Shown here: piece after piece, positions 4,410 through 32,883 of the stretch
How the letters are laid out: each line of letters opens with the position of its first letter
How positions within the stretch are numbered: the first letter of the stretch is position 1
From: an uncultured beta proteobacterium
GTDB taxonomy: Bacteria; Pseudomonadota; Gammaproteobacteria; Burkholderiales; Burkholderiaceae_C
Direction of reading: 5' to 3'
DNA length: 64,000 nucleotides
Assembly: GCA_963738615.1 (NCBI GenBank)
Contig: CAVTXI010000019.1
Coordinates: 154,771-218,770, forward strand
Translations under genes and position numbers: made by a program
The notes under the pieces: generated by a model
What the model was told of the DNA's origin: nothing
Seen by the model: only the letters and a program-made list of their open reading frames with translations
Databases searched by the model: none

Positions 4410-5558
4410 TCAGGGGCGACTGAAGTCGCCCTGGAGCATGAGGTGCCAGCGCGCGTGCAGCTCGCGGTCGATCCACGGCAGCCGCTCGAGCGGCTGCGCA
4501 AACCAGCGCCCGAAGTCGGCGCGCATGCGCTGCGGCGATGCCTCACCGGTCAGACGCCGCAGGTCTTCGAGTGCCACCGCGGCCCAGGCATTGGCGATGG
4601 CGCGGTCGTGCGGCGCTTGGCGATGGGCGCTGCATGCTGCGAGGTAGGCGAAGCGATAGTCTTTCGACCAACCCCCGAGCGTGCCGCGCACACGCGACGC
4701 AAGCTTGTCCTGCCAAGCCTTGGGTGGCTCGCCGAGCAACGGCAGCGGTTGTGACTCGAGCGCGCAGAACGTGGCTGCGTCGCGCGGGTTCACGTGACGG
4801 TCGGCCTGCACGTGGATGAAGCCGCGCGTGTGGCCCCAGTAGTGGTGCACCACGTCCTTGCACGTCGCGAGCTTCGTGCGCTGGTCCAGCACCACGCCGA
4901 ACGCGAACTGCTCGACGTTGAAGACCGGTGCGCGGTCATACAGCGCGTCGAGCAGCGCCAGCGCCTGCTTGACCAGCGGCGCGTGCGATGGCAACACGCC
5001 GACGACGCCCGAGTTGAACATCGGCGTGGCGGCGGACATGTGAAAGCCTTCGATCTCGACGCCGTGGCGAATGAACTCGACAACGTCGGCGCAGTCGGGG
5101 TCGTCCGCGATCGCGGGCACTTCCTGCTCGTGCATCACCGTCGCATCAGGGCCGATGCGTTCGAACAGGCGCCGCGGCGACGCGGTGAAGAAGGTGTCGG
5201 TGTCGACCAACGCCACCGGCTCATCGCCCGCGTGCCGCATCGCGTCCAGCAGCGCCAGCACTTTCACGCGGTGGTTGTAGCTGCGGCCGGGTGTGCTCGT
5301 CCAAGCGCGCATGGTGTCGGGGTCGATCACGCGCACGTCGAACGGAAAGCTTTTGTCGAAGCGCGGCCGGTCGCTGATCAGTTCGATGCGGACTGCGTCG
5401 CTGCCATCGTCGCCTCGTTGGTCGCTCCGCAGATGGATGCGCGCCGACAGCGCACTGAGCAGGAATTCGAGCTCGTAGGTTTTGTTGTCGCCGTAGAGCA
5501 GATAGGTCAGGACTGCCATGCCGCTCAGCCGAAGTGCTTGTCGCTTGTCGCTGGCCAC
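4410..5558 (-). CDS. hypothetical protein, possibly nucleotide-diphospho-sugar transferase-like
   Basis: 382-aa intact ORF with coding-like composition; the VALVDTDTFF block loosely resembles a GT-A DxD region; no firm family assignment. Confidence 0.4.
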   Translation of the reverse strand: MASDKRQALRLSGMAVLTYLLYGDNKTYELEFLLSALSARIHLRSDQRGDDGSDAVRIELISDRPRFDKSFPFDVRVIDPDTMRAWTSTPGRSYNHRVKVLALLDAMRHAGDEPVALVDTDTFFTASPRRLFERIGPDATVMHEQEVPAIADDPDCADVVEFIRHGVEIEGFHMSAATPMFNSGVVGVLPSHAPLVKQALALLDALYDRAPVFNVEQFAFGVVLDQRTKLATCKDVVHHYWGHTRGFIHVQADRHVNPRDAATFCALESQPLPLLGEPPKAWQDKLASRVRGTLGGWSKDYRFAYLAACSAHRQAPHDRAIANAWAAVALEDLRRLTGEASPQRMRADFGRWFAQPLERLPWIDRELHARWHLMLQGDFSRP

Positions 5559-7741
5559 TCGTGCGGCGCGATGTCATGACCCGCATCGGCAGGCCGCGCG
5601 GCCAGCGGGATGCGTGCCCCATGGCGCACGAAGAGCGGCAGCCGCGACAGTGGCGCATGCACCGCGTGGCGACGTCCCGAGCCGAACGCGTCGCCGGTGT
5701 CGAAGGCATGCCAAGGTTTGTTGTCGGGCAGCGGCGGCAGAAACACCTCGCGCTGCTTGGCGCCTGCCTCGACCACCGGCGCCACCAGCAGATCAGGTCC
5801 GAGCATGAAGTCGTCGCTGTCGTCGAAGCACGCGTCGACATCCGGGAAGTCGAAGAACGTAGGGCGGATGATCGGCTCGTGGTGCGTGTGCGCGCGTGCG
5901 GCCAGCTTCCACAGGTACGGCATCAGCACGTATCGCAACTCGATCGCGCGACGCACGTCGTCGACCACCTCGGGGTGCATCCACGGCACGCTGCTCACAT
6001 TGCCGGGCTTCCAGGAATTCATCACCATGCGCGGGTTCAGGCAGCAGGCCTGCACCCAGCGCAGGAAGAGCTCGGCGTCGGGCAACGGCCCGTAGAAGCC
6101 GCCGACGTCGTGGCCGACGTGGAACATGCCCGACAAGCTCATCTGCAAGCCGGTGCGGATGTTCCAGCGCAACGTGCGCCAGCTGGTGGTGTTGTCGCCC
6201 GACCAAGTCTGCGCGTAGCGCTGGATGCCGGGCGGGCCGGCGCGCGTGACGGTGAAAGGCTCGGCGTGCGGCGACCCTTTTGCAGCGCGCTCACGTTGCG
6301 CTTCGATCGTGGCGCGTGTCATCAGCAGCGCGTGCAGCGGGCGGCAGCGATGCAGCGGGATCGGCTTGCCGAAACCGTCGCACTGCGCGGCTTCGTCGAG
6401 CACGGCGTATTCGTTGTTGTCGTTCCAGCCCGCGTCGATGCCGTACTCGAGCACCTGCGCGTCGAGCTTGCGTTGCCACCACGCGATCGTGCGCGGATGC
6501 GTGAAGTCGAGGTGCGCGCCCATGCCGTCCCAGAAGGGCTCGAGTACCGGCTCGCGCTTCGACGCGTCATGCACGAAGCCGTCGAAGCCGCGCACCTCGT
6601 CCCAATCGGGGTGGTCGTCGAGCAGGCAGGGCTTGAGGTTCGCGACAAGCTTCATGCCCTGCGCCTCGAACTTCGCGTTCAGCACCTTCGGCTCCGGGAA
6701 CTTGCCTTCGTTCCAGGTGAAGACATAGCGGCGCGCGCCGCGTGACGAATAGCCCGAGCCGTAGTGGAACGCCGAGATCGGAATGCGGTGCTGCGCGATG
6801 CGGTCAATGAAGTCCGACAGCCGCGCCTGCGCGTCGGGCGCATCGGCCAGCCCCATCGCGGTCTGCGCAAAGCCCAGCGACCAGCGCGGCGGCAGCGCCG
6901 TGCCGCCGATCAACTTCATGAACTGCGCGATCACCTCGGCGGGCGAATCACCGACCATCATCCAGATGTCGAGGTCACCGTCGTCGATCTCGACATGGCG
7001 ATACAGGCCGTGGTAGTTGTCGTGTTCGCAGCCCAGGTCGAAGGTGCAGGCGCACAACGTGTCGTGAAACTGGCCGTACCAGGTGCCGTCGGCCGCGCGC
7101 ACGAGCAGGAAGGGCCAATGTTTGTACAGCGGGTCGCCGTGCTCGGGGTCGTAGCCCAAAGCGTCCATCGCAATCGTGCGCAGACGACGGCCGCGCAGGT
7201 TCAGTGGTCCCGTCTTGTCACCCAGGCCGTAGTAGCGGTCGGCGGCGGAGCGTTCGACGTAGTGCCGTGCTGCGCCGGTGCGCGTTTCGCGAAGGTAGGC
7301 GCTGGTCGCGCGGTCGGCGCAGAAGGGGTCACGGCCGCCCGTGGTGCGCCACTCGAGGCGCAACGGGTTTGTATGCAGCGTGGCGATCAGCTTCGACGTG
7401 CCGAGCGTCGGTGCATGCGGCATCGTGGGTTCGCCCGCGTGGTCACCCGCCGCTGCGGCCCTGACACCCGCGACCCTCGCCGTGACCGCGGGTACCGCAC
7501 CAAAGCCCGATAGATCATCGCGGTCGCGCCCCTGCCACGGCGAATCGGCCGCGCGTTCGCCGTCGGCCATCGGTGCAATCGACCAGGTGCGCGGCTCTTT
7601 GTATCCCGATGCCGGCTTCAACGTCACGCGCGCCAGCCGCTCACCCACGAAGCGCAGCGTCATCGTCGCGCCGTCGTCGAGTTCGACGCGTGCGGTCGAG
7701 CCGTCGACGATCCACTTTGTGCGCGCGGTCCAGGGCGTCAT
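5525..7741 (-). CDS. glycoside hydrolase family 31 (alpha-glucosidase/alpha-xylosidase-like)
   Basis: 738 aa with GH31 catalytic-region motifs (WNDNNE nucleophile region, HVGHDVGGF, W-rich blocks); stop overlaps the downstream ABC ATPase start. Confidence 0.85.
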   Translation of the reverse strand: MTPWTARTKWIVDGSTARVELDDGATMTLRFVGERLARVTLKPASGYKEPRTWSIAPMADGERAADSPWQGRDRDDLSGFGAVPAVTARVAGVRAAAAGDHAGEPTMPHAPTLGTSKLIATLHTNPLRLEWRTTGGRDPFCADRATSAYLRETRTGAARHYVERSAADRYYGLGDKTGPLNLRGRRLRTIAMDALGYDPEHGDPLYKHWPFLLVRAADGTWYGQFHDTLCACTFDLGCEHDNYHGLYRHVEIDDGDLDIWMMVGDSPAEVIAQFMKLIGGTALPPRWSLGFAQTAMGLADAPDAQARLSDFIDRIAQHRIPISAFHYGSGYSSRGARRYVFTWNEGKFPEPKVLNAKFEAQGMKLVANLKPCLLDDHPDWDEVRGFDGFVHDASKREPVLEPFWDGMGAHLDFTHPRTIAWWQRKLDAQVLEYGIDAGWNDNNEYAVLDEAAQCDGFGKPIPLHRCRPLHALLMTRATIEAQRERAAKGSPHAEPFTVTRAGPPGIQRYAQTWSGDNTTSWRTLRWNIRTGLQMSLSGMFHVGHDVGGFYGPLPDAELFLRWVQACCLNPRMVMNSWKPGNVSSVPWMHPEVVDDVRRAIELRYVLMPYLWKLAARAHTHHEPIIRPTFFDFPDVDACFDDSDDFMLGPDLLVAPVVEAGAKQREVFLPPLPDNKPWHAFDTGDAFGSGRRHAVHAPLSRLPLFVRHGARIPLAARPADAGHDIAPHEWPATSDKHFG

Positions 7742-8787
7742 GATGTCGAAGCTCCGATGTCCAGACGCTGACCTTGTGCGTCGAATGCATGCAGGTGCCG
7801 CAGGTCGGGCGCAAGGTTCACGCGCTGCCCGCGCTCGAGCACCGGCGCGTCGGTCAGCAGCGCCTCGAGCCGCGAACCGTCGGCCAGCGTGCCTTGCAGC
7901 AGGCTCTGCCCGCCGAGGAACTCGACGCCGGTGATGTCGACAGGCAAACCCGCAGCCGAGCCGTTCGCAAGCCGCCAGTGTTCGGGGCGCAGGCCCACGG
8001 TGTTGGTGTTGCCCGGCAGGGCCCCCGCCAGCTCGTGATGCGCCGCCACCGCCGCACGCGGCAGCAGGTTCATGCGCGGGCTGCCGATGAAGCCGGCGAC
8101 AAACGTGTTGGCCGGGCGTTCGTACAACTCGCGCGGCGGGCCGATCTGTTCGACGCGCCCGTCGCGCAGCACCACGATGCGATCGGCCATCGTCATCGCC
8201 TCGACCTGATCGTGCGTCACGTACACCATCGTCGCGCCGAGCCGTCCGTGCAGCTCGCGCAACTCACTGCGCATCGACACGCGCAACTCGGCGTCGAGGT
8301 TCGACAGCGGTTCGTCGAAGAGAAAAATCTTCGGCTCGCGCACGATGGCTCGGCCGATCGCGACGCGTTGCCGCTGCCCGCCCGACAACTGCGTGGGCTT
8401 GCGATCCAGCAGCGTGTCCAGCCGCAGCATCGCCGCCGCCTTCTCGACCCGCGGGCGGACCTGCGTGCTCGGCATGCCCGAGTTCTCGAGCCCGAACGCC
8501 ATGTTCGCGTACACGCTCATGTGCGGATAAAGCGCGTAGCTTTGGAACACCATCGCGCAGCCGCGGTCGGCGGCCGACACATCGTTGACACGCTGCCCGT
8601 CGATCAAAACGTCGCCCGACGTCGGCGTCTCGAGCCCCGCGATCATGCGCAGCAGCGTTGACTTGCCACAGCCCGACGGACCAACGAAGACAACGAACTC
8701 ACCGTGCGGCGCCGACAGATCGACGCCGCGGATGACGTCGACCTGGCCGAAGGTCTTGGTGATGGAGGTCAGGTCGAGCGAGGACAT
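7738..8787 (-). CDS. sugar ABC transporter ATP-binding protein (MalK/UgpC-like)
   Basis: Walker A GPSGCGKST, LSGGQRQRVAIGRA, Walker B FLFDEP and a C-terminal TOBE-like regulatory domain. Confidence 0.9.
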   Translation of the reverse strand: MSSLDLTSITKTFGQVDVIRGVDLSAPHGEFVVFVGPSGCGKSTLLRMIAGLETPTSGDVLIDGQRVNDVSAADRGCAMVFQSYALYPHMSVYANMAFGLENSGMPSTQVRPRVEKAAAMLRLDTLLDRKPTQLSGGQRQRVAIGRAIVREPKIFLFDEPLSNLDAELRVSMRSELRELHGRLGATMVYVTHDQVEAMTMADRIVVLRDGRVEQIGPPRELYERPANTFVAGFIGSPRMNLLPRAAVAAHHELAGALPGNTNTVGLRPEHWRLANGSAAGLPVDITGVEFLGGQSLLQGTLADGSRLEALLTDAPVLERGQRVNLAPDLRHLHAFDAQGQRLDIGASTS

Positions 8788-8791: not shown

Positions 8792-9991
8792 CTACCTCGC
8801 GGCTTGATCCGGCTCGCGCCGACTTCTCGGGATCTGATCGCGTGTGATCAGCCCCGCGGTCAATCCATTCATGATGACGTACGGCTGCATCAGCGGGTTC
8901 ACGAATCGGAATCGGTAACGGCGCTTGATGCCGCTGCGGCTGAGGATGGGCCCGCGATCGGGTTCGCAGAACGCTTTCATGTGTTGCGAGAAGGTCGGGA
9001 TTTCGTAAGGACGCCCCATGATTTTCGACATCGGCTCGCGCACGCTGCCGGCGTAGAAGAACCCGAGCGAGTCGGTTTCGGACATCGCGCAGGCCAGCAA
9101 CACTTGCGTGTACAGACTGTCTTTGCGCGGGCTCGTCACCGCCTTGTGATAGCCGCTGACCACGCTGTGCTGCGCGGTCCTGAGCGCGCGCCGGATGGCG
9201 GTGTCGACGTCGCGAACCTCGACTTCCGGCCCGCCTCGTTCGACGGCGTCTTGAAACGCGTTGAGCGCCAGCAGATGCGTGTAGTGCGGCAGCCCTTGCG
9301 ATAGCGCAAGTACCTGGTTTGCAGCGTCCGCGGTAATGTCCATGCCGCAGATCGCCGACCCGGTCGAGACAACCTCCATCAACTCGGTGTCGGACATCCG
9401 GGGCATCGGGATCTGCTTCAGGTTTCGCTCGATCGACACGTGTTCGGCAATCAAGGCGTCCACTGATTCGGCGACGCCGACGAGGATGATCGTCGAGTCG
9501 ATCCCATGGTCGGACAGGTTCTTGATGCAGTCCGCCAGCTTCGTCGTTGCACTCCGGTCGCGCAGGCGATCGACCTCGTCGAAGACGATGACCGTCTTCT
9601 TGATGTTCTGCAGGATGTGCCTGATGTCGTCGGGGCGGATCTCTTTGGGCGCCAGGTCGTCCATGGTCCTATTACCGTCCAGGTGCATTTCGCGGAAGGC
9701 GGCGTGCCAAAGCGAGGAGAACGACATCGACTCGTCGCAATTGATCGGCCCGCAAGCCGGCTTGTTGACCTGGTCGCCGAACGTCTCGTAGACCACGTTG
9801 GCAAGCGAGGTCTTGCCCACGCCGCGCTCGCCATAGATCACGGCGTGCTGACCCTTTTGCGAAACGGCCGTGACCGCGTCGCGAAGCTGTTCGAATCGGC
9901 CTGCGAACAGGGTGCGCTTGTCGATCGGCGCGCTCGGCGTGAATGCGGTGCCGATCTTGGCGATCTTGGCGATCTTCTCGATGGTTGCCAC
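8792..9991 (-). CDS. ORC/Cdc6-like AAA+ ATPase (P-loop NTPase with probable C-terminal winged-helix region)
   Basis: FAGRFEQL..HAVIYGERGVGKTSL Walker A, IVFDEVDRL Walker B, ILVGV sensor; the stop is 4 nt from the malK-like start; the N terminus carries a 9-bp tandem repeat encoding KIAKIAKI; GC looks lower than the neighbouring genes. Confidence 0.7.
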   Translation of the reverse strand: MATIEKIAKIAKIGTAFTPSAPIDKRTLFAGRFEQLRDAVTAVSQKGQHAVIYGERGVGKTSLANVVYETFGDQVNKPACGPINCDESMSFSSLWHAAFREMHLDGNRTMDDLAPKEIRPDDIRHILQNIKKTVIVFDEVDRLRDRSATTKLADCIKNLSDHGIDSTIILVGVAESVDALIAEHVSIERNLKQIPMPRMSDTELMEVVSTGSAICGMDITADAANQVLALSQGLPHYTHLLALNAFQDAVERGGPEVEVRDVDTAIRRALRTAQHSVVSGYHKAVTSPRKDSLYTQVLLACAMSETDSLGFFYAGSVREPMSKIMGRPYEIPTFSQHMKAFCEPDRGPILSRSGIKRRYRFRFVNPLMQPYVIMNGLTAGLITRDQIPRSRREPDQAAR

Positions 9992-10124
9992 TCGTGCTCC
10001 TTCGCTGTCGGCTAATGCAAATATAAGCTCATCGACTCACAATATGACATTCAGCGCCGCCACACCGGAGCTAGAACGGGCATCAAAACGAGCTACATGC
10101 CCCTAAGTTTCCGCATAGCGGGAT

Positions 10125-11429
10125 ATGACTGTGCCAGCGCTACCCTTCCCTCCACCCGGCTACATCGCCGTCGCATCCGCCGTACCCGGCATCGAGGTCT
10201 ACGCCCCCGCGAAATCCGACACGGACAGCGTCGAGGGCGAAGCAAGGCGCGAAACCGTCGAGTTCCACTGCCCACAGTGCGGCGCCGGCACGGCCTACAG
10301 CGCGACCCACGGCGCGTTGGCATGCACACGCTGCGGCTACAAGGAAGCGCCCAAGGCCGACACCGTCGGCCAAGCCGCGCAGACCTTCGAGTTCAACGTC
10401 GACACGCTCGAGCGCGCGGCGCGCGGCTGGGGTCAGTCGCGGCTCGAGATCGCGTGCAGTGGTTGCGGTGCGCACGTCACGGTGCCGGAAGGTGCGCTGA
10501 CCGCAGCGTGCCCGTATTGCGCGTCGAACAAGGTGGTGCCGCGGCAGGCGTCGCAAGACACCATGCGCCCGCGTTTCGTCGTGCCGTTCACCCTCGACGC
10601 CCAAGCGCTCGAGCCCGTGGTGCGTCAGTGGCTGGGCAGCAGTTGGATGACGCCACGCGCGCTGGCCGACTCGGTGAACCCGGGCCGGCTCGAGCCGGTG
10701 TACGTGCCCTACTGGACCTTCGACGCGCGCGCCGACGCGCAATGGCAGGCCGAGGTCGGTGTCGATGAGACCCAACATCGCTTCGACGGCAACACCAAAC
10801 AAATGCAGACGCACACGGTGACGCACTGGCACAACGAGACGGGGCAAGCGACACAGCACTTCGCCGATCTGCTCGTCGTCGGCACCGACAAGCTGGGCGA
10901 GCGGCGCCTGAACGAGATCGGCAACTTCGACACCGCGGGTCTGGTCGCCTACGACGCAAGCCTGCTGGCCGGCACGCATGCGCAGGCGCACGACGTGGCG
11001 CTCGAGCCCGCGTGGGCCGCCGCGCGACATCGCATGCGTGAGGCCACGCGCAACACGTGCCGCGCGTCGATCCGCGGCGACCACGTCGCCAACTTCGTGA
11101 TGTCGCTCGACTTCGCCGACGAGCGTTGGCGCAACGCGCTGCTGCCCGTGTATGTGGCCGCGTACCGGCATGAAGGCAAGACGTACCGCGTGCTCGTCAA
11201 CGGCCAGACCGGTGCCATCGCCGGGCAGCGGCCGGTGGACCGCAAGCGCGTGCGCCTGGCAATCACCGCGCTGCTGGCACCAGGTGCGGTGTTGGCGCTG
11301 GCAGGGCTGGTCACGCTGGCCATGGGCTTGGGCGCCGTCCTGATGGCCGCGGGCCTGGTGCTGATGTTCTTCGGCGGCGTGATCGCCTCGGGCATCCGCG
11401 ACAAGGCGCGGTCGATGGACGATGACTGA
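10125..11429 (+). CDS. zinc-ribbon protein with C-terminal transmembrane helices, paralog 1 (unknown function)
   Basis: Two CxxC...CxxC ribbons (CPQCG..CTRCG; CSGCG..CPYC), then about 250 soluble aa, then a hydrophobic C terminus (LAITALLAPGAVLALAGLVTLAMGLGAVLMAAGLVLMFFGGVI); shares LPVY..WQA and VLVNGQTG..GQR blocks with the next ORF. Confidence 0.75.
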   Translation: MTVPALPFPPPGYIAVASAVPGIEVYAPAKSDTDSVEGEARRETVEFHCPQCGAGTAYSATHGALACTRCGYKEAPKADTVGQAAQTFEFNVDTLERAARGWGQSRLEIACSGCGAHVTVPEGALTAACPYCASNKVVPRQASQDTMRPRFVVPFTLDAQALEPVVRQWLGSSWMTPRALADSVNPGRLEPVYVPYWTFDARADAQWQAEVGVDETQHRFDGNTKQMQTHTVTHWHNETGQATQHFADLLVVGTDKLGERRLNEIGNFDTAGLVAYDASLLAGTHAQAHDVALEPAWAAARHRMREATRNTCRASIRGDHVANFVMSLDFADERWRNALLPVYVAAYRHEGKTYRVLVNGQTGAIAGQRPVDRKRVRLAITALLAPGAVLALAGLVTLAMGLGAVLMAAGLVLMFFGGVIASGIRDKARSMDDD

Positions 11430-12558
11430 GCACGCACGCCCGATGCCCGCCCCGATGCCCACCTCACGACGAAGCCTGCATTGCGTCGCCTGCGGCTGGT
11501 CGTTCGTCGGTGACGCGAACGGCGCAGCACCCGGCCCGTGCCCGCACTGCTGGCGTGCCGAACTGAGCCCTGCGGCCGACACCTCGGCGCTGCCCGTCGA
11601 GAAGCTCGTGCCTTTCGCGTTGTCGCAAGCGCAGATCGATGCCGCCATCACGAGCTTCGCGAAAGGCATCCCCCATCCACCCACCGACCTCGAGGCTTCG
11701 ACGCTGCGCAAGCGCAAGCGCGCGATGGCGCTGCCGGTGTACCTGGTCGACGCCGACGTGAAGGCCACGTGGCAGGCGCAGGCGGGGTTCGACTATCAGG
11801 TGGTGAGCCATCGCGAGCAGAACGCAGGTGCCGGCTGGCAGACCGAACAGATCGAAGAAACGCGCGTGCGCTGGGAGCCGCGCGTCGGCAGGCTCGAGCG
11901 ATCGTTCCAGAACCTTCACGCGCCCGCACTGGAAGAGCACGATGAACTGATGCAGCGTCTGAGCCACTACGACACCAGCAAAGCCGTGGACGCACAACCT
12001 CGAGGCGCCGATGCAGCCACGCTGATGCGCCTGCCCGATCGTCCCACCACCGACGCCTGGCACGAGGCCACCGCAAGCCTGCACACCGCCGCAGCCGACG
12101 AATGCCGCAAGGCCGCGGGCGCGCAGCACATCCGCGAGTTCCACTGGCAACCGACGTGCGACAACCCGAACTGGACCCTGCTGCATCTGCCGGTCTGGGG
12201 CACGCACTACACCGACGACGACGGCAAGCCGCAGCCGGTGCTGATCAACGGTCAGACAGGGCATCTGTGGGGGCAGCGCCGCGGCTCGATGAAACGCGCA
12301 CGCGGTTTCGCCTTCACGCTGCTCGCGATCGGCGCACTCGTCTTCGCGCTCGCCATCGTGATCGCGCTTGTTGCGCTGGCGTTGCCGTTGCTGATGCCGG
12401 TGGCGGGCACGGTGGCGGTCGTGGGGCTGGCCATCGCGGCGGGCTCGGCCGTGCCGGTCGGGCGGGTGTGGGGCTTCAACCGCGAGGAGCGGCGCCGTGA
12501 GCGCCCTCTCGACGCACGCCGCAAACTGGACAAAAATACAGCCCGCTCTGACCGCTGA
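11422..12558 (+). CDS. zinc-ribbon protein with C-terminal transmembrane helices, paralog 2 (unknown function)
   Basis: One CxxC..CxxC ribbon (CVACG..CPHC), shared LPVYLVDADVKATWQAQAG and VLINGQTGHLWGQR blocks, hydrophobic C terminus; overlaps paralog 1 by 8 nt and ends 6 nt before the MTase start. Confidence 0.75.
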   Translation: MTEHARPMPAPMPTSRRSLHCVACGWSFVGDANGAAPGPCPHCWRAELSPAADTSALPVEKLVPFALSQAQIDAAITSFAKGIPHPPTDLEASTLRKRKRAMALPVYLVDADVKATWQAQAGFDYQVVSHREQNAGAGWQTEQIEETRVRWEPRVGRLERSFQNLHAPALEEHDELMQRLSHYDTSKAVDAQPRGADAATLMRLPDRPTTDAWHEATASLHTAAADECRKAAGAQHIREFHWQPTCDNPNWTLLHLPVWGTHYTDDDGKPQPVLINGQTGHLWGQRRGSMKRARGFAFTLLAIGALVFALAIVIALVALALPLLMPVAGTVAVVGLAIAAGSAVPVGRVWGFNREERRRERPLDARRKLDKNTARSDR

Positions 12559-12563
12559 CCGCC

Positions 12564-13859
12564 ATGCTTCTCGATCGATGGAAGGCTGGGGGTTTCGCCT
12601 TCTCCCGCGTGGAATGCACGGCCTACGAGATCGATGCCGATGTGCGCGCGCATCTCGCGGCCACCCTAGCCACCTACTCGCAGCCCCGGCGCCTGGCATC
12701 CAAAGTCATGGGCGCTGACTTCATCACGACTGCTGCACTCGACATCGTCGAGGGTCAGGTCGGCCGACCCTACACGCATGCGATCCTCAACCCGCCCTAC
12801 AAGAAGATCAACAACGACAGCGCACATCGACGCGCGTTGAGCCAGGTCGGCATCGAGACGGTGAATCTCTACACCGCCTTCGTCGCGCTCGCGATCGAGC
12901 AGATGGCACCGGGCGGCATCGTCGTCGCGATCATTCCGCGATCGTTCTGCAACGGTACCTACTACAAGCCCTTCCGCGAGTTGATGCTGGAGAAGACAGC
13001 GCTGCGCGCCGTGCACCTGTTCGACAGCCGCGACTCGGCCTTCAAGGACGACGCCGTGCTTCAAGAGAACATCATCATCGTGTTGGAGCGCGGAGGAACG
13101 CAGGGCGATGTCGTGGTGACGACATCGACCGACGACTCGTTCACCGATGCGCGCACCTTCACCCACCCCTTCGACCGCATCGTATTTCCGGGCGATGGTG
13201 AACGATTCATCCACGTGCCGACGACCGATCGCGAAACGGCGCTCGAGCGCGTCAACGGGGTGCGCTTGACGCTCGACGAGATCGGCGTTCGCGTGTCGAC
13301 AGGCCCGATCGTGGACTTCCGGCTGAAGGACCACCTTCGCTTCGATACGGAGCCCGGGTCGGTGCCGATCCTCTACCCGATGCATTTCTCCTGCGGAAGT
13401 GGCGTGACCTGGCCAGTTGTCGGCGGCAAGAAGCCGAACGCGATCGTCGTCAACGACGAGACGCTGCCCTGGCTGATGCCCAACGGCTTCTACTGCGTCG
13501 TGCGTCGCTTCTCGTCGAAAGAAGAGCGCCGCAGGATCGTTGCCAACGTCATCCGCCCGCAAGATTTCCCCGCGGGAACCGAGTTCCTCGGGCTCGAGAA
13601 CCACATCAACGTCTTCAACGATCGTCGACGCGGCCTGCCCGAGTCGATGGCCCACGGCCTGGCCGTCTACATGAACACGACCGCCGTCGACGAAGCGTTT
13701 CGGCGCTTCAGTGGACATACACAAGTGAACGCCGGCGACCTGCGGACGATGCGCTACCCCAGCCGCGACATGCTGATGAAGCTCGGCGCCTGGGGCAAAG
13801 CGAACCCATCGGCCACGCAGGACGCCATTGATCGCGCATTCGAATCGCTGACGGCATGA
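12564..13859 (+). CDS. N6-adenine DNA methyltransferase, PstI/BsuBI (Eco57I-like gamma class) family
   Basis: NPPY catalytic motif (HAILNPPY) preceded by a motif II-like VECTAYEIDADV; a motif I-like segment abuts the start and an in-frame stop lies 4 codons upstream, so the N terminus looks shorter than family members. Confidence 0.75.
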   Translation: MLLDRWKAGGFAFSRVECTAYEIDADVRAHLAATLATYSQPRRLASKVMGADFITTAALDIVEGQVGRPYTHAILNPPYKKINNDSAHRRALSQVGIETVNLYTAFVALAIEQMAPGGIVVAIIPRSFCNGTYYKPFRELMLEKTALRAVHLFDSRDSAFKDDAVLQENIIIVLERGGTQGDVVVTTSTDDSFTDARTFTHPFDRIVFPGDGERFIHVPTTDRETALERVNGVRLTLDEIGVRVSTGPIVDFRLKDHLRFDTEPGSVPILYPMHFSCGSGVTWPVVGGKKPNAIVVNDETLPWLMPNGFYCVVRRFSSKEERRRIVANVIRPQDFPAGTEFLGLENHINVFNDRRRGLPESMAHGLAVYMNTTAVDEAFRRFSGHTQVNAGDLRTMRYPSRDMLMKLGAWGKANPSATQDAIDRAFESLTA

Positions 13860-14490
13860 CGACCCGCAAGCGCCATCTCGCGGAAGCCTTGCGCATCCTC
13901 GCTGACCTTGGAATGCCGAAGGCCCAGCAGAACGAGCGTTCGGCGGTCACGCTGCTGGCCTTGGCGGGGCTGCGCCCGGGGCTCGAGTGGCGCGACGCGA
14001 GCGCTCCGCTGGTGGGCATCACGCCGATCATGGAGTGGGCCAAGGCGCACTACGGCAAGGCCTACGCGCCAAACACACGTGAGACGTTCCGCCGTCAATC
14101 GATGCATCAACTGGTGGCAGCAGGTCTTGCGCTCTACAACCCAGATGAGCCGCAACGTCCGGTCAACAGCCCCAAGGCATCTACCAGATGGACGAGCACG
14201 GCAAGATGCCCGATGTGGTGCTGTGGTACGAGGAGAAGAACTGGCTGCTGTTGGTGGAGTCGGCCACCAGCCACGGGCCGGTTGACAGCAAGCGCCACGG
14301 TGAGCTGTCGAAGCTCTTCGCTTCGGCCAGGCCCGGGCTCGTCTTCGTCACGGCGTTCCCGGACCGTCGGACGATGGGTCGCTACCTTGCCGACATGGCT
14401 TGGGAAAGCGATGTGTGGATCGCTGACGACCCGTCGCACATGGTCCACTTCAACGGGTCGCGGTTTCTGGGGCCATATGAAGCGCACTGA
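13856..14490 (+). CDS. PstI/BsuBI-like type II restriction endonuclease (apparent -1 frameshift near 14178)
   Basis: The N-terminal frame (13856..) matches the BsuBI/PstI REase N domain (LGMPKAQQNERSAVTLLAL..GITPIMEWAKAHYGKAYAPNTRETFRRQSMHQ..YNPD..PVNSPKA); the C-terminal frame (14188..14490) matches the C domain (MPDVVLWYEEKNWLLLVESATSHGPVD..VTAFPDRRTMGRY..VWIADDPSHMVHFNGSRFLGPY); start overlaps the MTase stop (ATGA). Confidence 0.7.
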
Positions 14491-14549
14491 GCGCTATCCC
14501 ATGGGGGAGGCCGCGGGCCTAAACTCACGAGACGATCGAGAGGCAATGC

Positions 14550-15071
14550 ATGACCAACGAAGTCATCGAAAGGCCGCTCAGCGCCGAGGCGTTGGGTTCG
14601 CTGTTCCGTGACCTATGTGCCGACCCGCGGTTCGGCAATTTGCCGGGCAAGCTCGAACTGGACCCGTGGGGGCGAATCCTGATGAGTCCTGCGAACAATC
14701 GTCACAGCGTCATCCAGACGCTGCTTGCCATGCGTCTGGGCGCCCTCGTCGGCGGCCAACCGATCGTCGAGGCTTCGGTGGTCACACCCGCAGGCCTCTT
14801 TGTCGCGGATGTCGTGTGGGCGTCGGAGGCGTTCATGCGCACCCACGGCGCGCAGACGCCGTTCGAGCGCGCGCCCGAACTTTGCATCGAAGTCGCGTCG
14901 CCGTCGAACTCGCGCAAGGAACTTCGCGAGAAGGTCGACGCCTACATCGCCACGGGCGCGAGTGAAGCCTGGATTGCCTACCCTCAATCCAAGCGCTTCG
15001 AGTTCTTCGGCGCGGGCGGTCAGCTGGCGCGGTCGCAGTTCGCTGTCGATCTCGACGGGCTGTTCGACTAA
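14550..15071 (+). CDS. Uma2-family (DUF820) PD-(D/E)xK restriction-endonuclease-like protein
   Basis: 173 aa with the typical Uma2 core (ADVVW..PELCIEVASPSN..KVDAYIATGASEAWIAYP). Confidence 0.75.
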   Translation: MTNEVIERPLSAEALGSLFRDLCADPRFGNLPGKLELDPWGRILMSPANNRHSVIQTLLAMRLGALVGGQPIVEASVVTPAGLFVADVVWASEAFMRTHGAQTPFERAPELCIEVASPSNSRKELREKVDAYIATGASEAWIAYPQSKRFEFFGAGGQLARSQFAVDLDGLFD

Positions 15072-15091
15072 CCGCGACAAGCGCAGCCCCA

Positions 15092-16156
15092 CTACTTCAC
15101 CCCCGCACTCGCAATCCCCGTCGTGATGTAGCGCTGCAAGAACGCAAACACCAGCGTCACCGGCAACAGCGTGATCACGGTCATTGCCAGCAGGTAGTGC
15201 CACTGGGTATTGAGTTCCCCCTGGAACGCGTTCAACGCCAGTTGCAGCGTGAACACCTCGGAGCGTGACAGCACGATCAGCGGCAGCAGGAAATCGTTCC
15301 AGCGCCACATCACCGAGAAGATCGCGAGTACCGCCAATGCGGGCGCGGTCAGCGGCAGGATGATTCGCCAGTAGATGCGCCATTCGCTGGCGTGGTCCAT
15401 GCGCGCGGCCTCGAGCAATTCGTCGGGGATCGTCAGCATGTATTGGCGCAGCAGGAACACGCCGGTCGGCGTGGCGATGGCCGGCAGGATCACGCCCCAC
15501 AGGCTGTTGAGCAGGCCCACCTGGCCGATGACCAGAAACACCGGCACGAGGATGATCGTCGGGGGGATCATCAGCGTGGCGATGATCACAAGAAACACCG
15601 CCTTGTCGCCCTTGAACGAATACTTCGACAGCGCGAAGGCAGCCATCGAATTCACCAGCAGCGTCAGTACTGTCGCGATCACGGTGATGAAGACGCTGTT
15701 CCAGAGGTAGCGGCCGAACGAGAACTTCGCGAACAGGTCGCTGTAGTTGTTCCATGCGAACTGCAGACGGCTGATCGGCGTGCGGTCCCTGATATTCACC
15801 TGCACCGGCGCCGCTGTCGGGTCGGCGGGGTCGACCATCGTCGCCATGATGCCGATGCGGCGCAGTTGCGCCATCGGTTTGACGCTTGCATCCGCGAGCT
15901 TCGTTGCGAAGAGCGGCAGCGGCTGCGCCTGACCTTCCACCTGGACCGTCGCCTGCGAGTACGGCAGGAAGCTCGGCGGGAAGACGTTGATCGCGCTTTC
16001 GGTCTTGAAGGACGACATCACCAGCCACAAGATCGGCGCGAACATCGTGATCAAGCCGATGAACAAGTACGCGTAGCTGGCGACGTCGGTCCAGTGCAGT
16101 CGGGTGCCGCCGCGGCTGGCAGTGAGCCACGCCAATGACGATGTGCCTTTTGTCAT
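15092..16156 (-). CDS. carbohydrate ABC transporter permease (MalG/AraQ-like)
   Basis: Multi-TM protein with an EAA loop (EAARMDHASEWRIYWRIILPL). Confidence 0.9.
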   Translation of the reverse strand: MTKGTSSLAWLTASRGGTRLHWTDVASYAYLFIGLITMFAPILWLVMSSFKTESAINVFPPSFLPYSQATVQVEGQAQPLPLFATKLADASVKPMAQLRRIGIMATMVDPADPTAAPVQVNIRDRTPISRLQFAWNNYSDLFAKFSFGRYLWNSVFITVIATVLTLLVNSMAAFALSKYSFKGDKAVFLVIIATLMIPPTIILVPVFLVIGQVGLLNSLWGVILPAIATPTGVFLLRQYMLTIPDELLEAARMDHASEWRIYWRIILPLTAPALAVLAIFSVMWRWNDFLLPLIVLSRSEVFTLQLALNAFQGELNTQWHYLLAMTVITLLPVTLVFAFLQRYITTGIASAGVK

Positions 16157-16251: not shown

Positions 16252-17766
16252 ATGAAGAAGATCATCATCGGCGCCGTCGTCGCGCTGCTCGCGCTGGCTT
16301 GGCCGGCCGCAACCTGGTGGACAGGCAAGCAGGTCGAAACGCGCCTGGCCGACAACGCCAGGAAGCTCGAAGACATGCCTTTCATGAAGGTCGTCAAACG
16401 CGACTTCAAGCGTGGCTTCGGCAGTTCGACCGAAGACGTCACGATCGAGCTCTTCGGTGGCTTCCAGCGCGCGATCGAACAGTCTCGCAAGGACGACGCA
16501 GCCGCGAACGCCGCCGCCGACATGCTGCAACCGATGCAACTGACCTTCCGCTCGACCATCCAGCATGGTCCCTTCGCGGGCGGCAAGGTCGCTGCGGCGG
16601 TCGTCGATTCCGAAATGATCTTGGACGCCAAGACCAACGAGGCGCTGACCAAAGCCTTCGGCGGTAAGAAGCCGCTGACCGCGCGCACGGTCTTCGACTA
16701 CGGCGGCGCGGGCCGCACGTCGATGCAAAGCCCGGCAATGACGACCACGCTGCAGGGCGAAGACGGTGAGCCGGTGTCGATCGCATGGGACGGCATGACG
16801 GCGGATGTGGAATTCAGCGTCGACATGAAGCGTCTGGTGATGAGCGGCAAGGCGCCGAAGTTCGAGCTGAAGGGCGCCAAGGGTGAGCAGATGGTGATGT
16901 CGGGCATGCAGCTCAGCGGCCAGCAGACGCGCGTATTCGACGACGAGCCCCTGCTGTATGGCGGCAAGCAGCGGCTCGAGATCGCGCGCTTCGAATTCAG
17001 CGCACCGAAAACCCAGCAGGTCGGTGACGCGAAGGCGACGGTGATGAGCATCGAGAACATGGTCTACGACGTCGACACGCCCATCGCGGGTGAGTTCATC
17101 GACATCGTCGCCAAGATGGGTGCCGCCAAGTTCGTGATCGACCAGCAGGACTACGGCCCGGCGAACTACGACACGTCGTTCAAGCGCATGCACGCGCGCA
17201 CCGTGGCCGGGCTCTACCGCGACATGATGAAGATGTACGCCGACCCGGCGCTGCTGGCCGGCAAGCCCGACCCCGCCATGATCCTCGGGCCGATGATGCA
17301 ACGCGCGCAAGAGCTGCTGAAGCACAACCCCGAATTCGCGATCGACCGCATCAGCTTCAAGAGCCCTCAAGGCGAAGGCCTGGTGTCAGCACGCGTTGCG
17401 CTGAAGGACGTGAAGCCCGACGACTTGTCGAACGCCGCAGCCCTGATCCCGAAGATCGACGCAACCGCAAAGGTCGTGCTGCCCGAAGCCATGCTGGCAG
17501 AGATGAGCGCCTCGAGAGCGGAAACGCCTGAAGAGAAGAATGCGCAGCGCCAGATGTTCACCATGCAGGTGCAGTCCTTCAGCGACCAGGGTTACGTGGT
17601 CCGCAAGGGCGCGATGCTCGAGTCGACGATTGTGTTCAAGGACGGCCAACTCACCGTGAACGGCAAGCCGCTGGGGCCGATGGGTGCGATGGGTGCGCGG
17701 GGCCAAGGAGACCCGCAAGGCCAGCGCCCAACGGGGCCGCGCGGCGCGCCACGCAAGCGTCCTTAA
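16252..17766 (+). CDS. YdgA-like DUF945 family protein (N-terminal anchor, periplasmic)
   Basis: The real start MKKIIIGAVVALLALAWP lies inside the longer ORF; about 505 aa with a Gly/Pro-rich C terminus; lies between the two permease genes on the opposite strand. Confidence 0.6.
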   Translation: MKKIIIGAVVALLALAWPAATWWTGKQVETRLADNARKLEDMPFMKVVKRDFKRGFGSSTEDVTIELFGGFQRAIEQSRKDDAAANAAADMLQPMQLTFRSTIQHGPFAGGKVAAAVVDSEMILDAKTNEALTKAFGGKKPLTARTVFDYGGAGRTSMQSPAMTTTLQGEDGEPVSIAWDGMTADVEFSVDMKRLVMSGKAPKFELKGAKGEQMVMSGMQLSGQQTRVFDDEPLLYGGKQRLEIARFEFSAPKTQQVGDAKATVMSIENMVYDVDTPIAGEFIDIVAKMGAAKFVIDQQDYGPANYDTSFKRMHARTVAGLYRDMMKMYADPALLAGKPDPAMILGPMMQRAQELLKHNPEFAIDRISFKSPQGEGLVSARVALKDVKPDDLSNAAALIPKIDATAKVVLPEAMLAEMSASRAETPEEKNAQRQMFTMQVQSFSDQGYVVRKGAMLESTIVFKDGQLTVNGKPLGPMGAMGARGQGDPQGQRPTGPRGAPRKRP

Positions 17767-18773
17767 GACTTCTTCGGCGGTGTTGACGGGGTGCGCTTCC
17801 CCGCGTCACCCGCGCGCGTCAGGCGCAACTGCACCAGCGTCAGCACCACCAGGAACACCGCCAGGATCAGCGACCCCGCCGCCGCCAGCCCGTACAGGTG
17901 GATCTGCTCGGCGAAGCCCGTCTGGTAGATGAACTGCACCATGAAGGTCGTGGCCGATCCGGGGCCGCCGCCGGTCAACACGAACACTTCGTCGAAGACC
18001 TGCACCGCGCGGATCATCGCCAGCACCAGCACGACGATCAGGTTCGGCATCAACAGCGGCAGCGTGATGCGCGTGAGCGTGCGCCACGGCGATGCGCGGT
18101 CCATCAGCGCGGCTTCGTACAGGTCTTTCGGAATCGCCTGCAACCCCGCCAGCAGGATCAGCGTGTAGAACCCCATGTGCGCCCAGATCGACACGAACAC
18201 GGCCCAGAAGAAAGCCCAGCCCGCGTTGGTCAGCCACTCCACCGGTTGCGCGCCCGCGGCGACCAGCCCGGCGTTAAACGCGCCCTGGCTTTGCAGCAGC
18301 CACTTCCAGATCAGCGCGACCACCACCGGCGACAGCAGCACCGGGTAGAAGAACACGCCGCGCCAGAAGCCGCGGCCGATGATCTTGCGGTTGAGCACCA
18401 GCGCCGTCACCATCGACAGCACAACCATCAAGCCGACTTGAATCAGCGCGAACTTCGCGGTGTTGTAGATCGCGCGCCAGAACACGTCTTTGCGGCAGGT
18501 CTGCACGTCGAAGTAGTTCTTGCACTCGAGCAGCGTCTGGAAGTTCTCGGCGCCGACGTAGGGGCGCTCGGTCGGCAGCAGCTTCACGCCGCCGGTCGCG
18601 GCGTACCAGACGTTGATCGCGATCGGCAGGAAGCAGAAGAGGCCGAAGACGATCAGGTTCGGCCCGACGAAGAGCCACGCCAAGCGCTGGATGCCGAAAC
18701 GGCGCTGCACCCAGCCGAACAGCGGCTCGAAGAGGCCGAAGAACGGCGCGAGCAGGCGGGAAGCCGCCATCAT
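17763..18773 (-). CDS. carbohydrate ABC transporter permease (MalF/AraP-like)
   Basis: Multi-TM protein with an EAA loop (EAALMDRASPWRTLTRITLPL). Confidence 0.9.
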   Translation of the reverse strand: MMAASRLLAPFFGLFEPLFGWVQRRFGIQRLAWLFVGPNLIVFGLFCFLPIAINVWYAATGGVKLLPTERPYVGAENFQTLLECKNYFDVQTCRKDVFWRAIYNTAKFALIQVGLMVVLSMVTALVLNRKIIGRGFWRGVFFYPVLLSPVVVALIWKWLLQSQGAFNAGLVAAGAQPVEWLTNAGWAFFWAVFVSIWAHMGFYTLILLAGLQAIPKDLYEAALMDRASPWRTLTRITLPLLMPNLIVVLVLAMIRAVQVFDEVFVLTGGGPGSATTFMVQFIYQTGFAEQIHLYGLAAAGSLILAVFLVVLTLVQLRLTRAGDAGKRTPSTPPKKS

Positions 18774-18783: not shown

Positions 18784-20077
18784 CTACTTCTGCGCCTGCT
18801 TCACCGCATCCGCCATGTCGGCGTTGATCTTCGCCAGCGCGTCGTCCACGCTGATCTCGCCGACGATCGCCTGCGTGACGCGTGCCACGGTGGGCAACAT
18901 GATCGCGCGGTTGAAGCGGTAGCCCTGGAACTGATAGGCCACCGGCGACAGCGCCTCGACGCCCTTGCCGAACGTCGACAACGCCGCCTTCGCCGCGGGC
19001 TGCGCAGTCTTGTAGTCGACGCCCTTCTTCGCCAGCCCCGCGTGCGCCGGGATGTTGTTGGTGCGTGCGGTGAACTCGGCCACGTTCGCTTCGCTCGCCA
19101 TGAACTCGAGGAACGCCGCGGTTTCTTGCGGCGACTTCGCTGGTCTTCAGCGCCACCCACGCCGCGCCGCCGGGAATGCCGGTGCACGCCGCCGGCCCGC
19201 AGGGGTTGGGCACCGCGACCCAGTCGAAGTTGTTGCCGACGTCCTTCTGCAGCCGGTTGATCTGCCACGAGCCCGACAGCACCATCACGACGCGGCCGTT
19301 GGTGAACTCGCCGATCGAGTCGGCGTAGGTGCAGCCGCCCGAGCCGGCCCACACCTCCTTCAACATCGTGCCGTCCTTGTGCCAGCCGACGAACTTGTTC
19401 ACCGCGGCCTTGTAGCCGTCGTCGAGCGCGAGGTTGCCGCTGCCGTCGAAGATCTTCGCGCCGTAGCTGATGGCCGGGCCGGCGAAGCGGTGGCCCGAAC
19501 GGTCCCACGCCATCGCGGCCTTCGTCTGCGTGGCCTGCGCGACCTTCTTCGTGGCGTCGGCCCACTGGTCCCACGTCGCCTTCGCGTCGGGCATCGGCAC
19601 CTTGGCCTGGTCGAAGAGCGTCTTGTTGACGTACGGGCCGGTCATCGTCAGCTGCGACATGAAGCCGTAGATGCCTTTGTCGGCCGCGCCGGGCCGCAGC
19701 CACGGCAGCGTGGCGCCGAAGTTGGTTTCGAAATACGCGGCGTCCTTCAGGTGCGGTCGCACGTCGAGGTAGTGCTTGGACAGGCCGCCCAGGTCGGTCA
19801 CGCGCGCGATGTCGGGGCCCTGGCCCGCGCCGAGTTGCACCGGCAACTGCTCGACGATGGTTTTGTAGGGCACGACGTCGAGCACGATCTTGATGTTCGG
19901 GTTCGCGGCTTCGAACTTCTTCGCGATCTCGGCGGTGACGTCGCACTCGACGCCGTCTTGGTAGCACATCACGCGGACTTCGCCTGCGACGGCGGGTGCG
20001 GATGACAGCGCGGCGAAGGCCAATGCAGCCAGTGCCGCGGGGGTGCGAAGAAACGAAACAGAAAGCGAAGCGGACAT
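18784..20077 (-). CDS. extracellular solute-binding protein of the sugar ABC transporter (apparent frameshift near 19140)
   Basis: Start MSASLSVSFL with signal peptide and a GAGGAA RBS; the body lies in the 821-aa artefactual ORF and the C terminus in the 18784..19101 frame (MASEANVAEF..AKINADMADAVKQAQK); a single G indel joins them. Confidence 0.75.
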
Positions 20078-20185: not shown

Positions 20186-21222
20186 ATGAACCCCAACCCG
20201 GCGACGCAGCCCACGGCGATTCCGGTGGCCGGCACCAACGCCGCCTTGCGCGCGTTGGTCGATGAAGTCCACGGCCCGATGGCTGCGCCGCCATCGCACG
20301 TGACGACAAGCATGCTGCACCGCGCCGTCGTCGCGCGCTGGGGCGACGCGACGCTCGAGACATGGCGCGTGGCGTGGGGCGAACGTCTCGGTGAAGGCTT
20401 CTCGATGATGCTGATGCGCCCCGCGGTCGCGGCGCCGTGCCCGGTGCTCGTCACCGGCGACGCATGCTGGGCCTACTGGATCGTCGATGACGTGATCGCG
20501 GCCGCGGCGCGCGCAGGCGTGGCGCTGGCGTGGTTCAACCGCACCGAGGTGCACGCCGACCCACCGCCCGAAGACCGCGCGGCGATCGACGCGCTGGTGG
20601 CGCAGCCGCCGCACGGCATGGCGGCGCTGGCGGCGTGGGCCTGGGCGCTGCACCGGGCGGTCGACGCGCTGGTCACCCTGCAAGGCATCGATCCCGCGCG
20701 CATCGGCGTTGCCGGCCACTCGCGCGGCGGCAAGGCCGCGCTGCTGGCCGCGGCGCTCGATGCGCGCATCGCACTCGTCGCAGCCAACAACGCGGGACGC
20801 TCGGCGCGGCGGCGTCGTTCGTCGGCGGCGAAGGCAGCGAGACCGTGGCTGATCTGGTGCGGCGCTTTCCGCATTGGGTCGGGCCACGGCTGCGCTTTGC
20901 CGTGACACGCGACGTGAAGGCCGTGCCGGGCATCGACCAGCAGTGCTGCTCGACGTCGATCGCGCCACGCGCGACTGCTGGTCACGCAGGCGACCGACGA
21001 CCGTGGGCAAACCCGGAAGGCACGCGACATGCGGTCGAGCGGGCGCGCGAGTTGGCCGTGGCGGGCTCGCTGAGGCTCGTGGAGCGCGATGGGGGTCACG
21101 CGCAGACGACGCGGGACTGGCTCGCGGTGATCGACGCGCTGAGCGAAGCATTCGTGCCCGCGGCGTGTGCGTCGAAACTCGGCGAAGAAACCGATATCCG
21201 AGAGGAAGGGAAGGAACGATGA
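20186..21222 (+). CDS. alpha/beta hydrolase resembling CE15 glucuronoyl esterase (two or more apparent frameshifts)
   Basis: The GHSRGGKAALLAAALDARIALVAANNAG nucleophile region resembles the CE15 GCSRNGK motif; the continuation is found in the 20530..21222 frame. Confidence 0.5.
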
Positions 21223-23008: not shown

Positions 23009-23064
23009 CGGATCGGGATTCGCCACGTTTGGCGAACCTCTTCGCGCCGCTCGGCGCGCGCACG

Positions 23065-23838: not shown

Positions 23839-23852
23839 CGCAACCCAAGCGC

Positions 23853-25306: not shown

Positions 25307-25430
25307 GGTGAGTGCATTGTAGGCATCGCTAGCATTGCTTTCATTGCTGGAAGTGGGCGGCACCAAGCGCCAAGCGGCATCGTCCACGGCCACGGCAGAA
25401 CGGCAGAACGGCGCGGCCACGCCGAGGCCG

Positions 25431-30710: not shown

Positions 30711-30732
30711 GTCGCCGCTTCACTTCGCCACA

Positions 30733-32819: not shown

Positions 32820-32883
32820 TGGGGGGGATCTCCTCCGGAAGGCGATGTGTCTCTTGGATATTGGGCACGCGCGCTGCGTCGCC

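Follow-up and report, generated by a model that had tools for sequence, protein, structure and literature searches.

We analyzed a 64,000-nucleotide stretch of contig CAVTXI010000019.1 (assembly GCA_963738615.1, positions 154,771 to 218,770; hereafter the window) from an uncultured beta proteobacterium, focusing on the 6.3 kb that separate a permease gene from the ATPase gene of a sugar ATP-binding cassette (ABC) transporter operon. Genes were assigned from long open reading frames (ORFs) with high GC content at third codon positions (GC3) by means of Pfam, NCBIfam and PADLOC (Table 1). This revealed a CUT1-type sugar uptake locus on the minus strand, comprising genes for a solute-binding protein (SBP), two permeases (perm2 and perm1), the ATPase and a family 31 glycoside hydrolase (GH31), in this order. 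The interval 8792-15091, walled by the ATPase gene on one side and by perm1 on the other, contains no transport genes. It is occupied by a solitary AAA+ ATPase gene (hereafter AAA), a pair of zinc-ribbon protein genes (ZnR1 and ZnR2), the methylase and endonuclease genes of a restriction-modification (R-M) system and a Uma2 gene, in agreement with an earlier note on this DNA as regards gene content, coordinates and the split of the uptake locus. At the borders, 4 bp separate the AAA stop codon from the ATPase ATG, and 20 bp separate the Uma2 stop codon from that of perm1. A further gene, DUF945, which the earlier note had missed, separates the two permease genes; its end overlaps the stop codon of perm2 with its own.

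Table 1. Features of the split sugar uptake locus, with positions in the window
Feature	Position	Strand	Evidence or remarks
GH31 glycoside hydrolase, last operon gene, host	5525-7741	-	Glyco_hydro_31_2nd E 7e-77, plus N- and C-terminal domains (Pfam)
UgpC/MalK-type ABC ATPase, host	7738-8787	-	ABC_tran and TOBE_2 (Pfam); NCBIfam UgpC E 1e-137
AAA, solitary AAA+ ATPase of ORC/Cdc6-like architecture	8792-9991	-	AAA_22 E 1e-12, AAA_16 E 4e-11 (Pfam)
AT-rich leader or candidate promoter region of the AAA cassette	9992-10069	-	conserved motif ATATTGTGAGTCGA...TATATT
ZnR1	10125-11429	+	two N-terminal zinc ribbons, beta-rich core, C-terminal transmembrane helical hairpin
ZnR2, one zinc ribbon	11422-12558	+	ZnR1 paralogue; 8-bp overlap with ZnR1
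PstI/BsuBI-type N6-adenine methylase with 64-codon in-frame deletion	12564-13859	+	PADLOC MTase_II E 5e-165, profile positions 67-489 only
PstI/BsuBI-type endonuclease pseudogene	13856-14490	+	BsuBI_PstI_RE_N (PF17728) E 1e-40, residues 6-109
Uma2 cassette (gene 14550-15071 with 40 bp upstream)	14509-15077	+	Pfam Uma2 E 2e-17; PADLOC candidate PDC-S03 E 8e-9
MalG/UgpE-type permease (perm1), host	15092-16156	-	BPD_transp_1
DUF945/YdgA-family gene, inserted between perm1 and perm2	16252-17766	+	Pfam DUF945 E 1e-97
MalF/UgpA-type permease (perm2), host	17763-18773	-	BPD_transp_1
SBP gene	18784-20077	-	SBP_bac_1/8 matches, ending at a frameshift

Junction content in outgroups and close relatives

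Species-representative genomes were scanned with perm1, yielding 80 outgroup loci with 65-85% identity, mostly from Comamonadaceae and other Burkholderiales. The perm1-ATPase spacer was 100 nt or shorter in 71 of the 76 loci that hold both genes, with a median of 24 nt, and perm2 adjoined perm1 in all 75 informative loci. No match to AAA, ZnR1, ZnR2, the methylase, the endonuclease, Uma2 or DUF945 was found in any of the 80 loci. This comparison, which the earlier note had proposed as a check, shows on the basis of gene order that the perm1-ATPase adjacency is ancestral and that the cargo genes were inserted into a contiguous operon. GH31 follows the ATPase gene in the outgroup loci too. The ATPase-GH31 half is 63-69% identical to the outgroups, compared with 85% for the permease; xenologous replacement of this half was considered and ruled out, because an equal disparity exists among the outgroups themselves, leaving orthology not in doubt. 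A metagenome scan with the ABC ATPase as query was dominated by paralogues (best 69% identity) and returned no members of the clade. Three loci from the more distant Geminicoccaceae (L062, L064 and L067) carry a co-oriented gene of about 1 kb at the perm1-ATPase junction (for example, 10883-11931 in L064), which by eye resembles a 2-hydroxyacid dehydrogenase.

Six contigs of the same clade were reached through homologues of the cargo proteins, giving seven genomes together with the window, and the content between perm1 and the ATPase gene was different in all seven. Read from perm1 toward the ATPase gene, the junction holds AAA alone in L085; Uma2, a BNR protein and AAA in L086; ZnR2 and ZnR1 in L082; LigB and Uma2 in L170; and a histidine kinase and a response regulator in L171. 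In L081 it holds Uma2, endonuclease, methylase, ZnR2, ZnR1, a cyclase-AAA_16-TPR protein and a Dyp-like protein, and in the window Uma2, the endonuclease and methylase remnants, ZnR2, ZnR1 and AAA. DUF945 is a second, separate insertion splitting the operon: it is present at the permease-permease junction in the window, L081, L170 and L171, and absent from L082, L085 and the 75 outgroup loci, the L086 contig ending before this junction. DUF945 and perm2 are 20-45 bp apart in L170 and L171 and overlap by 4 bp in L081 and in the window.

The closest relative, L081, shares about 97% nucleotide identity with the window and carries the ZnR pair, the R-M genes, Uma2 and DUF945 at matching places, indicating that these layers are older than the split between the two; the AAA segment alone differs in gene content. 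The earlier note had named a shared gene order with uniform GC in close relatives as evidence for an ancestral arrangement, and a shared order was observed for the placement of these older layers but not for the AAA segment. Across the six contigs, the window content resolves into at least four modules with independent distributions, namely the AAA cassette, ZnR1-ZnR2, the PstI-type R-M genes and the Uma2 cassette. The horizontally acquired island described earlier therefore holds as a set of insertions into a contiguous operon, but not as a single 6.3-kb unit.

Synonymous divergence (dS) of the ATPase gene from the window was used as a rough distance, with values of 0.10 for L081, 0.37 for L086, 0.45 for L082 and 0.75 for L085. 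L086 and L085 share AAA with the window but lack the ZnR pair, and L081 and L082 share the ZnR pair with it but lack AAA. Set against these distances, the two distributions are not tree-like and call for genes to have been gained and lost repeatedly or exchanged among the lineages. Collectively, these observations suggest that, in one uncultured clade of Burkholderiales-like bacteria, the perm1-ATPase interval has probably become a hypervariable hotspot of accessory genes, with the 6.3-kb island as its current state in this genome.

Divergence mosaic and explanations of the hotspot

Selection on the host genes was examined by comparing the window with L081. Here, the transporter genes showed dS values of 0.07-0.10 and ratios of nonsynonymous to synonymous divergence (dN/dS) of 0-0.09, with 0.05 for perm2; the perm1 protein was 100% identical at the amino acid level with a dS of 0.077, and the dN/dS of GH31 was 0.08. 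A check of the CUT1 importer parts found both permeases and the ATPase intact and under purifying selection, and the SBP frameshifted as sequenced. In a three-way alignment with L081 and L082, the SBP gene shows one extra base (+1) near 19141, outside any homopolymer, placing the final 118 or so codons out of frame, due to either recent pseudogenization or an assembly error. Since the window and L081 both carry the ZnR, R-M, Uma2 and DUF945 insertions with constrained transporters, the split operon stayed functional afterwards. The transporter genes were thus kept under strong purifying selection after the insertions, which implies that new transcriptional arrangements must have been acquired.

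Alignment with blastn revealed sharp breakpoints at 8791/8792, 10143/10144 and 14509/10. On the ATPase side, L081 and L082 are homologous to the window up to exactly 8791, 4 bp upstream of the ATPase ATG, and homology over the ZnR block starts at 10144-10146. Divergence from L081 is a mosaic, with identities of 88-100% in 300-bp blocks and about 88-90% around Uma2. A 2.1-kb tract over the ZnR pair (10444-12571) is 100% identical, compared with 88-99% in its flanks, and dS is 0 for ZnR2 and 0.027 for ZnR1, compared with 0.07-0.10 for the flanking genes and 0.26 for Uma2. This pattern points to exchange of cargo among related lineages by homologous recombination. For AAA, the dS relative to L085 is 0.82, close to the 0.74-0.75 of its flanking genes, which is compatible with long residence beside the ATPase gene.

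Base composition is weak evidence for a foreign origin. The GC content is 0.620 for AAA, 0.63-0.65 for the R-M genes and Uma2, and 0.69 for the ZnR pair, which exceeds the window mean of 66.2%. AAA lies about 1.7 standard deviations below the mean of 1.2-kb windows, its lower GC content stemming from codon positions 1 and 2, and GC3 is 0.80-0.87 for the cargo compared with 0.85-0.94 for the host genes. The observation in the earlier note that AAA looks less GC-rich is correct for overall GC content, but AAA has a GC3 of 0.835 and the host permease perm1 is no richer (0.622); the windowed GC and codon-usage calculation proposed there as a sign of horizontal transfer gave only small differences. 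The segment 9992-10124 is indeed AT-rich (51.9% GC), but rather than a divergent intergenic region it belongs mostly to the AAA cassette, because the stretch from 9992 to about 10069 travels with AAA in L085 and L086, where ZnR1 is not nearby.

No recombinase or transposase domain was detected by Pfam or NCBIfam in any ORF between 5525 and 20077. No repeats pair the two island borders, where only repeats at chance level occur, and a search there found no target-site duplication, in line with the absence of an integrase and of flanking direct repeats reported earlier. No tRNA gene lies within 40 kb of the region (the nearest is at 55341), and an Rfam scan of the region gave no match. Two mobile-element classes were considered and rejected: an integron cassette array, given the absence of an integrase, the presence of cassettes on both strands and the lack of imperfect inverted repeats at cassette ends; and a classical integrase-mediated, tRNA-associated island, given the absence of an integrase, att or direct repeats and a border tRNA. 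A feature shared with such classical islands is the empty site in the 80 outgroup loci, with variable presence inside the clade.

We propose that individual genes would first have arrived by illegitimate recombination, with only insertions at cistron boundaries surviving. Homologous recombination, with arms in the conserved permease and ATPase genes, may then have shuffled the cargo between related lineages, and spacers may have been trimmed later to 4-20 bp. The cargo would be largely of conflict or defence type, comprising the R-M genes, the Uma2 nuclease, an AAA+ protein of a phage-shared family and, in L081, the cyclase-STAND protein, and the ATPase-GH31 half is now probably transcribed from the promoter of the AAA cassette.

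Several points weigh against this account. The mechanism of the first insertions is not demonstrated, and a site-specific process may be hinted at by the left breakpoint, which falls exactly 4 bp before the ATPase ATG in independent states. None of the known defence systems was found complete by PADLOC, which recognized in the cargo the remnants of a type II methylase and its endonuclease as well as a candidate family for Uma2; any role of AAA, Uma2 or the ZnR pair in defence is putative. A scan for promoter and terminator consensus sequences returned nothing above shuffled expectation, and the SBP frameshift could be an assembly error. The sample comprises only seven genomes, mostly short metagenomic contigs, two of which are cut inside the hotspot, and without a species tree, gains cannot formally be separated from differential losses.

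If losses predominated, a long multi-gene island would have been inserted in an ancestor and lineages would have kept different subsets of it, with little or no later gain or exchange. This would account for the 4-bp AAA-ATPase junction common to the most distant members (L085, L086 and the window), for the similar dS of AAA and its flanks in L085 (0.82 vs. 0.75) and for the identical limits of the Uma2 cassette in four genomes, and deletions do occur here, the window having lost 192 bp and 314 bp. We consider it unlikely, since the ancestor would have needed BNR, LigB, two-component, Dyp, cyclase-STAND, R-M, ZnR, Uma2 and AAA genes together with many precise deletions. In addition, the identical ZnR tract within more diverged flanks indicates recent exchange or a sweep, and LigB lies between Uma2 and perm1 in L170, at the place of the 20-bp spacer in the window.

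Some inserted genes, above all AAA, could instead have been recruited as functional parts of the locus, AAA for example as an AAA+/winged-helix-like regulator of ATPase-GH31 expression, rather than being selfish or defence cargo. AAA is co-oriented with the ATPase gene, and the 4-bp junction is repeated in L085 (92% amino acid identity) and L086 (88%), so that the spacing is conserved in three genomes. Its dN/dS of 0.06-0.08 reflects strong purifying selection, the AAA protein being intact and strongly constrained, and a conserved AT-rich leader lies upstream. By contrast, members of this family occur in unrelated contexts, including a mycobacteriophage variable region and the L087 and L088 loci, where AAA relatives adjoin dnaA together with a DUF3800 gene, and L081 and L082 keep an intact, selected ATPase gene and GH31 without AAA. 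Recruitment is therefore improbable as an explanation.

Similarly doubtful is a role for the perm1-ATPase junction as an actively targeted gene-capture site, in which breaks made by a resident nuclease are repaired with foreign DNA. The candidate nuclease would be encoded by the Uma2 cassette, which has identical limits and different neighbours in four genomes. If true, gene capture would amount to integrase-free turnover of cassettes and would hold the breakpoints within a few bases of the start and stop codons of host genes.

Acquisition of the whole 6.3-kb block (AAA, ZnR pair, R-M genes and Uma2) in one transfer is very unlikely. It would fit the position of all genes in one uninterrupted operon gap, the operon-like packing of ZnR1, ZnR2, methylase and endonuclease (8-bp and 4-bp overlaps and a 5-bp spacer) and the absence of the block from the 80 outgroup loci. 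However, L085 has only AAA at this junction, L082 has only the ZnR pair, and in L086 and L170 Uma2 is accompanied by unrelated genes; L081 shares the ZnR-R-M-Uma2 part with other genes replacing AAA, and its dS relative to the window differs from module to module, from 0 to 0.26. The source genome and every close relative seem to stem from metagenome assembly, which would leave room for an operon split by chimeric joining of contigs. Such an origin is practically excluded, since every junction recurs in at least one independent assembly (AAA-ATPase in L085 and L086, the order ZnR1-ZnR2-methylase-endonuclease-Uma2-perm1 in L081, and perm1-DUF945-perm2 in L081, L170 and L171).

Pangenome studies of Escherichia coli and Listeria have reportedly described integration hotspots or "defence islets" between core genes, without mobile-element hallmarks. 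The hotspot in the sugar uptake operon resembles these in its fixed conserved flanks, in cargo that differs from genome to genome and is rich in R-M, nuclease and nucleoside triphosphatase genes, in the lack of an integrase or att sites, and in a mosaic divergence that fits homologous exchange in the flanks. It differs from them in lying inside an operon, between cistrons that are 24 nt apart in outgroups, in the second insertion between neighbouring cistrons, in the trimming of cargo down to spacers of 4-20 bp next to the start and stop codons of host genes, and in the purifying selection that still acts on the split operon. Genome variability of this kind is well known in bacteria; what is unusual is its location between cistrons of an operon under selection, its layered construction with no integrase and the close trimming of cargo against the codons where host genes start and stop. 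The locus provides a clean natural case of conflict-type accessory genes that accumulate, exchange and decay inside an operon without destroying it. It also carries a lesson for annotation, in that an "island" seen in one genome may be a stack of independent events and its R-M system a relic.

Cargo modules and neighbouring genes

Three of the cargo families may be of experimental interest: the ZnR pair, the solitary AAA+ family shared with a temperate phage, and the compact Uma2 cassette. AAA belongs to a family with more than 5000 matches that is common in Burkholderiales. Membership of the Orc1/Cdc6 family was tested and ruled out, as AAA scores 29.2 bits against TIGR02928, far below the cutoff of 181.3, and the alignment is limited to the P-loop region; the likeness to ORC is one of layout alone. 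AAA matches phrog_6841 (E 2e-47) and is 43.5% identical, over 92% of the protein, to gp30 of the temperate Mycobacterium phage Kevin1. The gp30 gene is located between the lysis genes and the integrase/repressor genes, beside a HicB-like antitoxin gene, in the central variable region of cluster N phages, which the phage authors noted as genomically diverse (PMC6544188). Both are solitary AAA genes in a variable accessory region with adjoining toxin-antitoxin or immunity genes, and the window AAA differs in being chromosomal and placed for coupled expression with the ABC ATPase gene. A defence-type role for AAA would be plausible.

The leader of AAA was delimited by blastn, with 55-78 bp of upstream sequence shared with L085 (to 10069) and L086 (to 10045). 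Its counterparts lie at 1262-1340 in L085 and at about 2830-2883 in L086, and form a conserved block in the alignment. The conserved AT-rich motif could be a promoter or operator, and the leader is the obvious candidate promoter for AAA-ATPase-GH31. In L086, the motif takes the form of a direct repeat, with TATATTGTGAGT present twice.

The two ZnR proteins are paralogues with 27% identity over 329 amino acids (BLASTP, E 1e-22), and Pfam matches in ZnR1 are confined to its zinc ribbons. An AlphaFold2 model of ZnR1, with a predicted local distance difference test (pLDDT) score of 83.8, consists of zinc ribbons, a core of very long beta-hairpins and a transmembrane helical hairpin; no solved structure matched the core. 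A Foldseek search of the model against BFVD returned A0A5K0UBJ7 and A0A3G4ZSZ8 from the giant viruses Yasminevirus and Edafosvirus (E 4e-10 and 1e-7), which are annotated as "DnaJ-like subfamily C member 3". A profile search placed the family at 9093 clusters, and among organism-labelled homologues of ZnR1 from beyond the clade, most belong to Chloroflexota, with identities of about 50%. The two genes are adjacent in L082, L083 and L084, and the pair occurs in unrelated contexts in other phyla, with ZnR1/ZnR2 identities of 55%/49% in L083 and 49%/46% in an Anaerolineales genome; the module appears to have moved between Chloroflexota and Proteobacteria. In PADLOC, the ZnR pair gave weak partial matches only, as did AAA. 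The module is thus widespread (about 9000 clusters), has a core fold with no solved relative and is uncharacterized within the scope of the searches made.

A possible analogue is YdjG (SamG) of Bacillus subtilis, a zinc-ribbon membrane protein whose gene belongs to the pspA-ydjGHI operon (PMC8581546, PMC9239133, bioRxiv 10.64898/2026.02.06.704340), which together with YdjH anchors the SPFH protein YdjI and PspA (PMC8581546, PMC9239133). By domain description (PMC9239133), the two share an N-terminal TFIIB-type zinc ribbon, a C-terminal membrane anchor and a second membrane protein encoded alongside. One member of the ZnR family (P0410) also carries a fused SPFH domain, Band_7_1, which is of the type present in YdjI. 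Unlike YdjG, ZnR1 has a paralogue as its partner, and no PspA or SPFH gene adjoins the pair, the nearest PspA-family gene lying about 22 kb away. The ZnR pair may form a membrane-anchored module, possibly a YdjG-like one.

The earlier note had read the ZnR and R-M genes as one operon on the opposite strand; the gene order is as described, but the R-M genes are remnants. The system resembles PstI/BsuBI type IIP R-M systems, which have an Eco57I-type gamma N6-adenine methylase, in its methylase-then-endonuclease order, 4-bp overlap and strong profile matches, and differs from a working system of this type in that both genes have been inactivated. Compared with L081, the methylase gene has lost 192 bp; the NPPY motif is retained, and the deleted stretch holds GQFMTP (motif X) and LLDAGAGFG (motif I), so the enzyme is predicted to be inactive. 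The endonuclease gene comprises an N-terminal helix-turn-helix domain, a frameshift with a 314-bp deletion (one base and 314 bp lost relative to L081) and a C-terminal fragment in another frame, in which 14188-14490 matches positions 65-153 of the 154 of PF06616, the catalytic domain, its first 64 positions being gone. In L081, the methylase is intact at 495 amino acids, and the endonuclease is already split by a frameshift. Decay was therefore stepwise, beginning with the endonuclease frameshift seen in L081 and proceeding in the window to the further endonuclease deletion and the loss of methylase motifs. As judged from these lesions, the R-M system is a non-functional relic. The window shows no depletion of CTGCAG, with 22 sites observed compared with 24.3 +/- 4.8 expected.

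The Uma2 cassette measures about 565 bp, its limits being 14509-15077 in comparison with L086 and 14510-15074 in comparison with L170, with different neighbours in each. The gene is intact, and its product is a predicted PD-(D/E)xK nuclease.

Several features were also noted beyond the uptake locus. A glucuronoyl-esterase-like (GCE_fung) gene at 20186-21141 (plus strand) matches its L170 and L082 orthologues in two frames, switching near 20788, and its second half is far more diverged (51-56% amino acid identity); it is probably a pseudogene. Between this gene and PPK2, an NYN-nuclease and OST-HTH/LOTUS gene occupies 21219-22037 (plus strand). The GCE and PPK2 genes overlap by 4 bp in L082 and are separated by only about 120 bp in L170, and the NYN/OST-HTH gene reads as another single-gene insertion at a gene boundary. 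About 14 kb between PPK2 and TerC (23009-37230) are missing from L082; this segment encodes a PLD-hydrolase fusion, a PIN protein, an 800-amino-acid AAA protein and DUF7902, as well as DUF3686 ("ATPase involved in DNA repair"), a PspA/IM30 protein and DUF2170. Further along, 51756-54876 (rplL, rplA, rplK and nusG) encodes highly conserved proteins that are alone or nearly so in their 90%-identity clusters.

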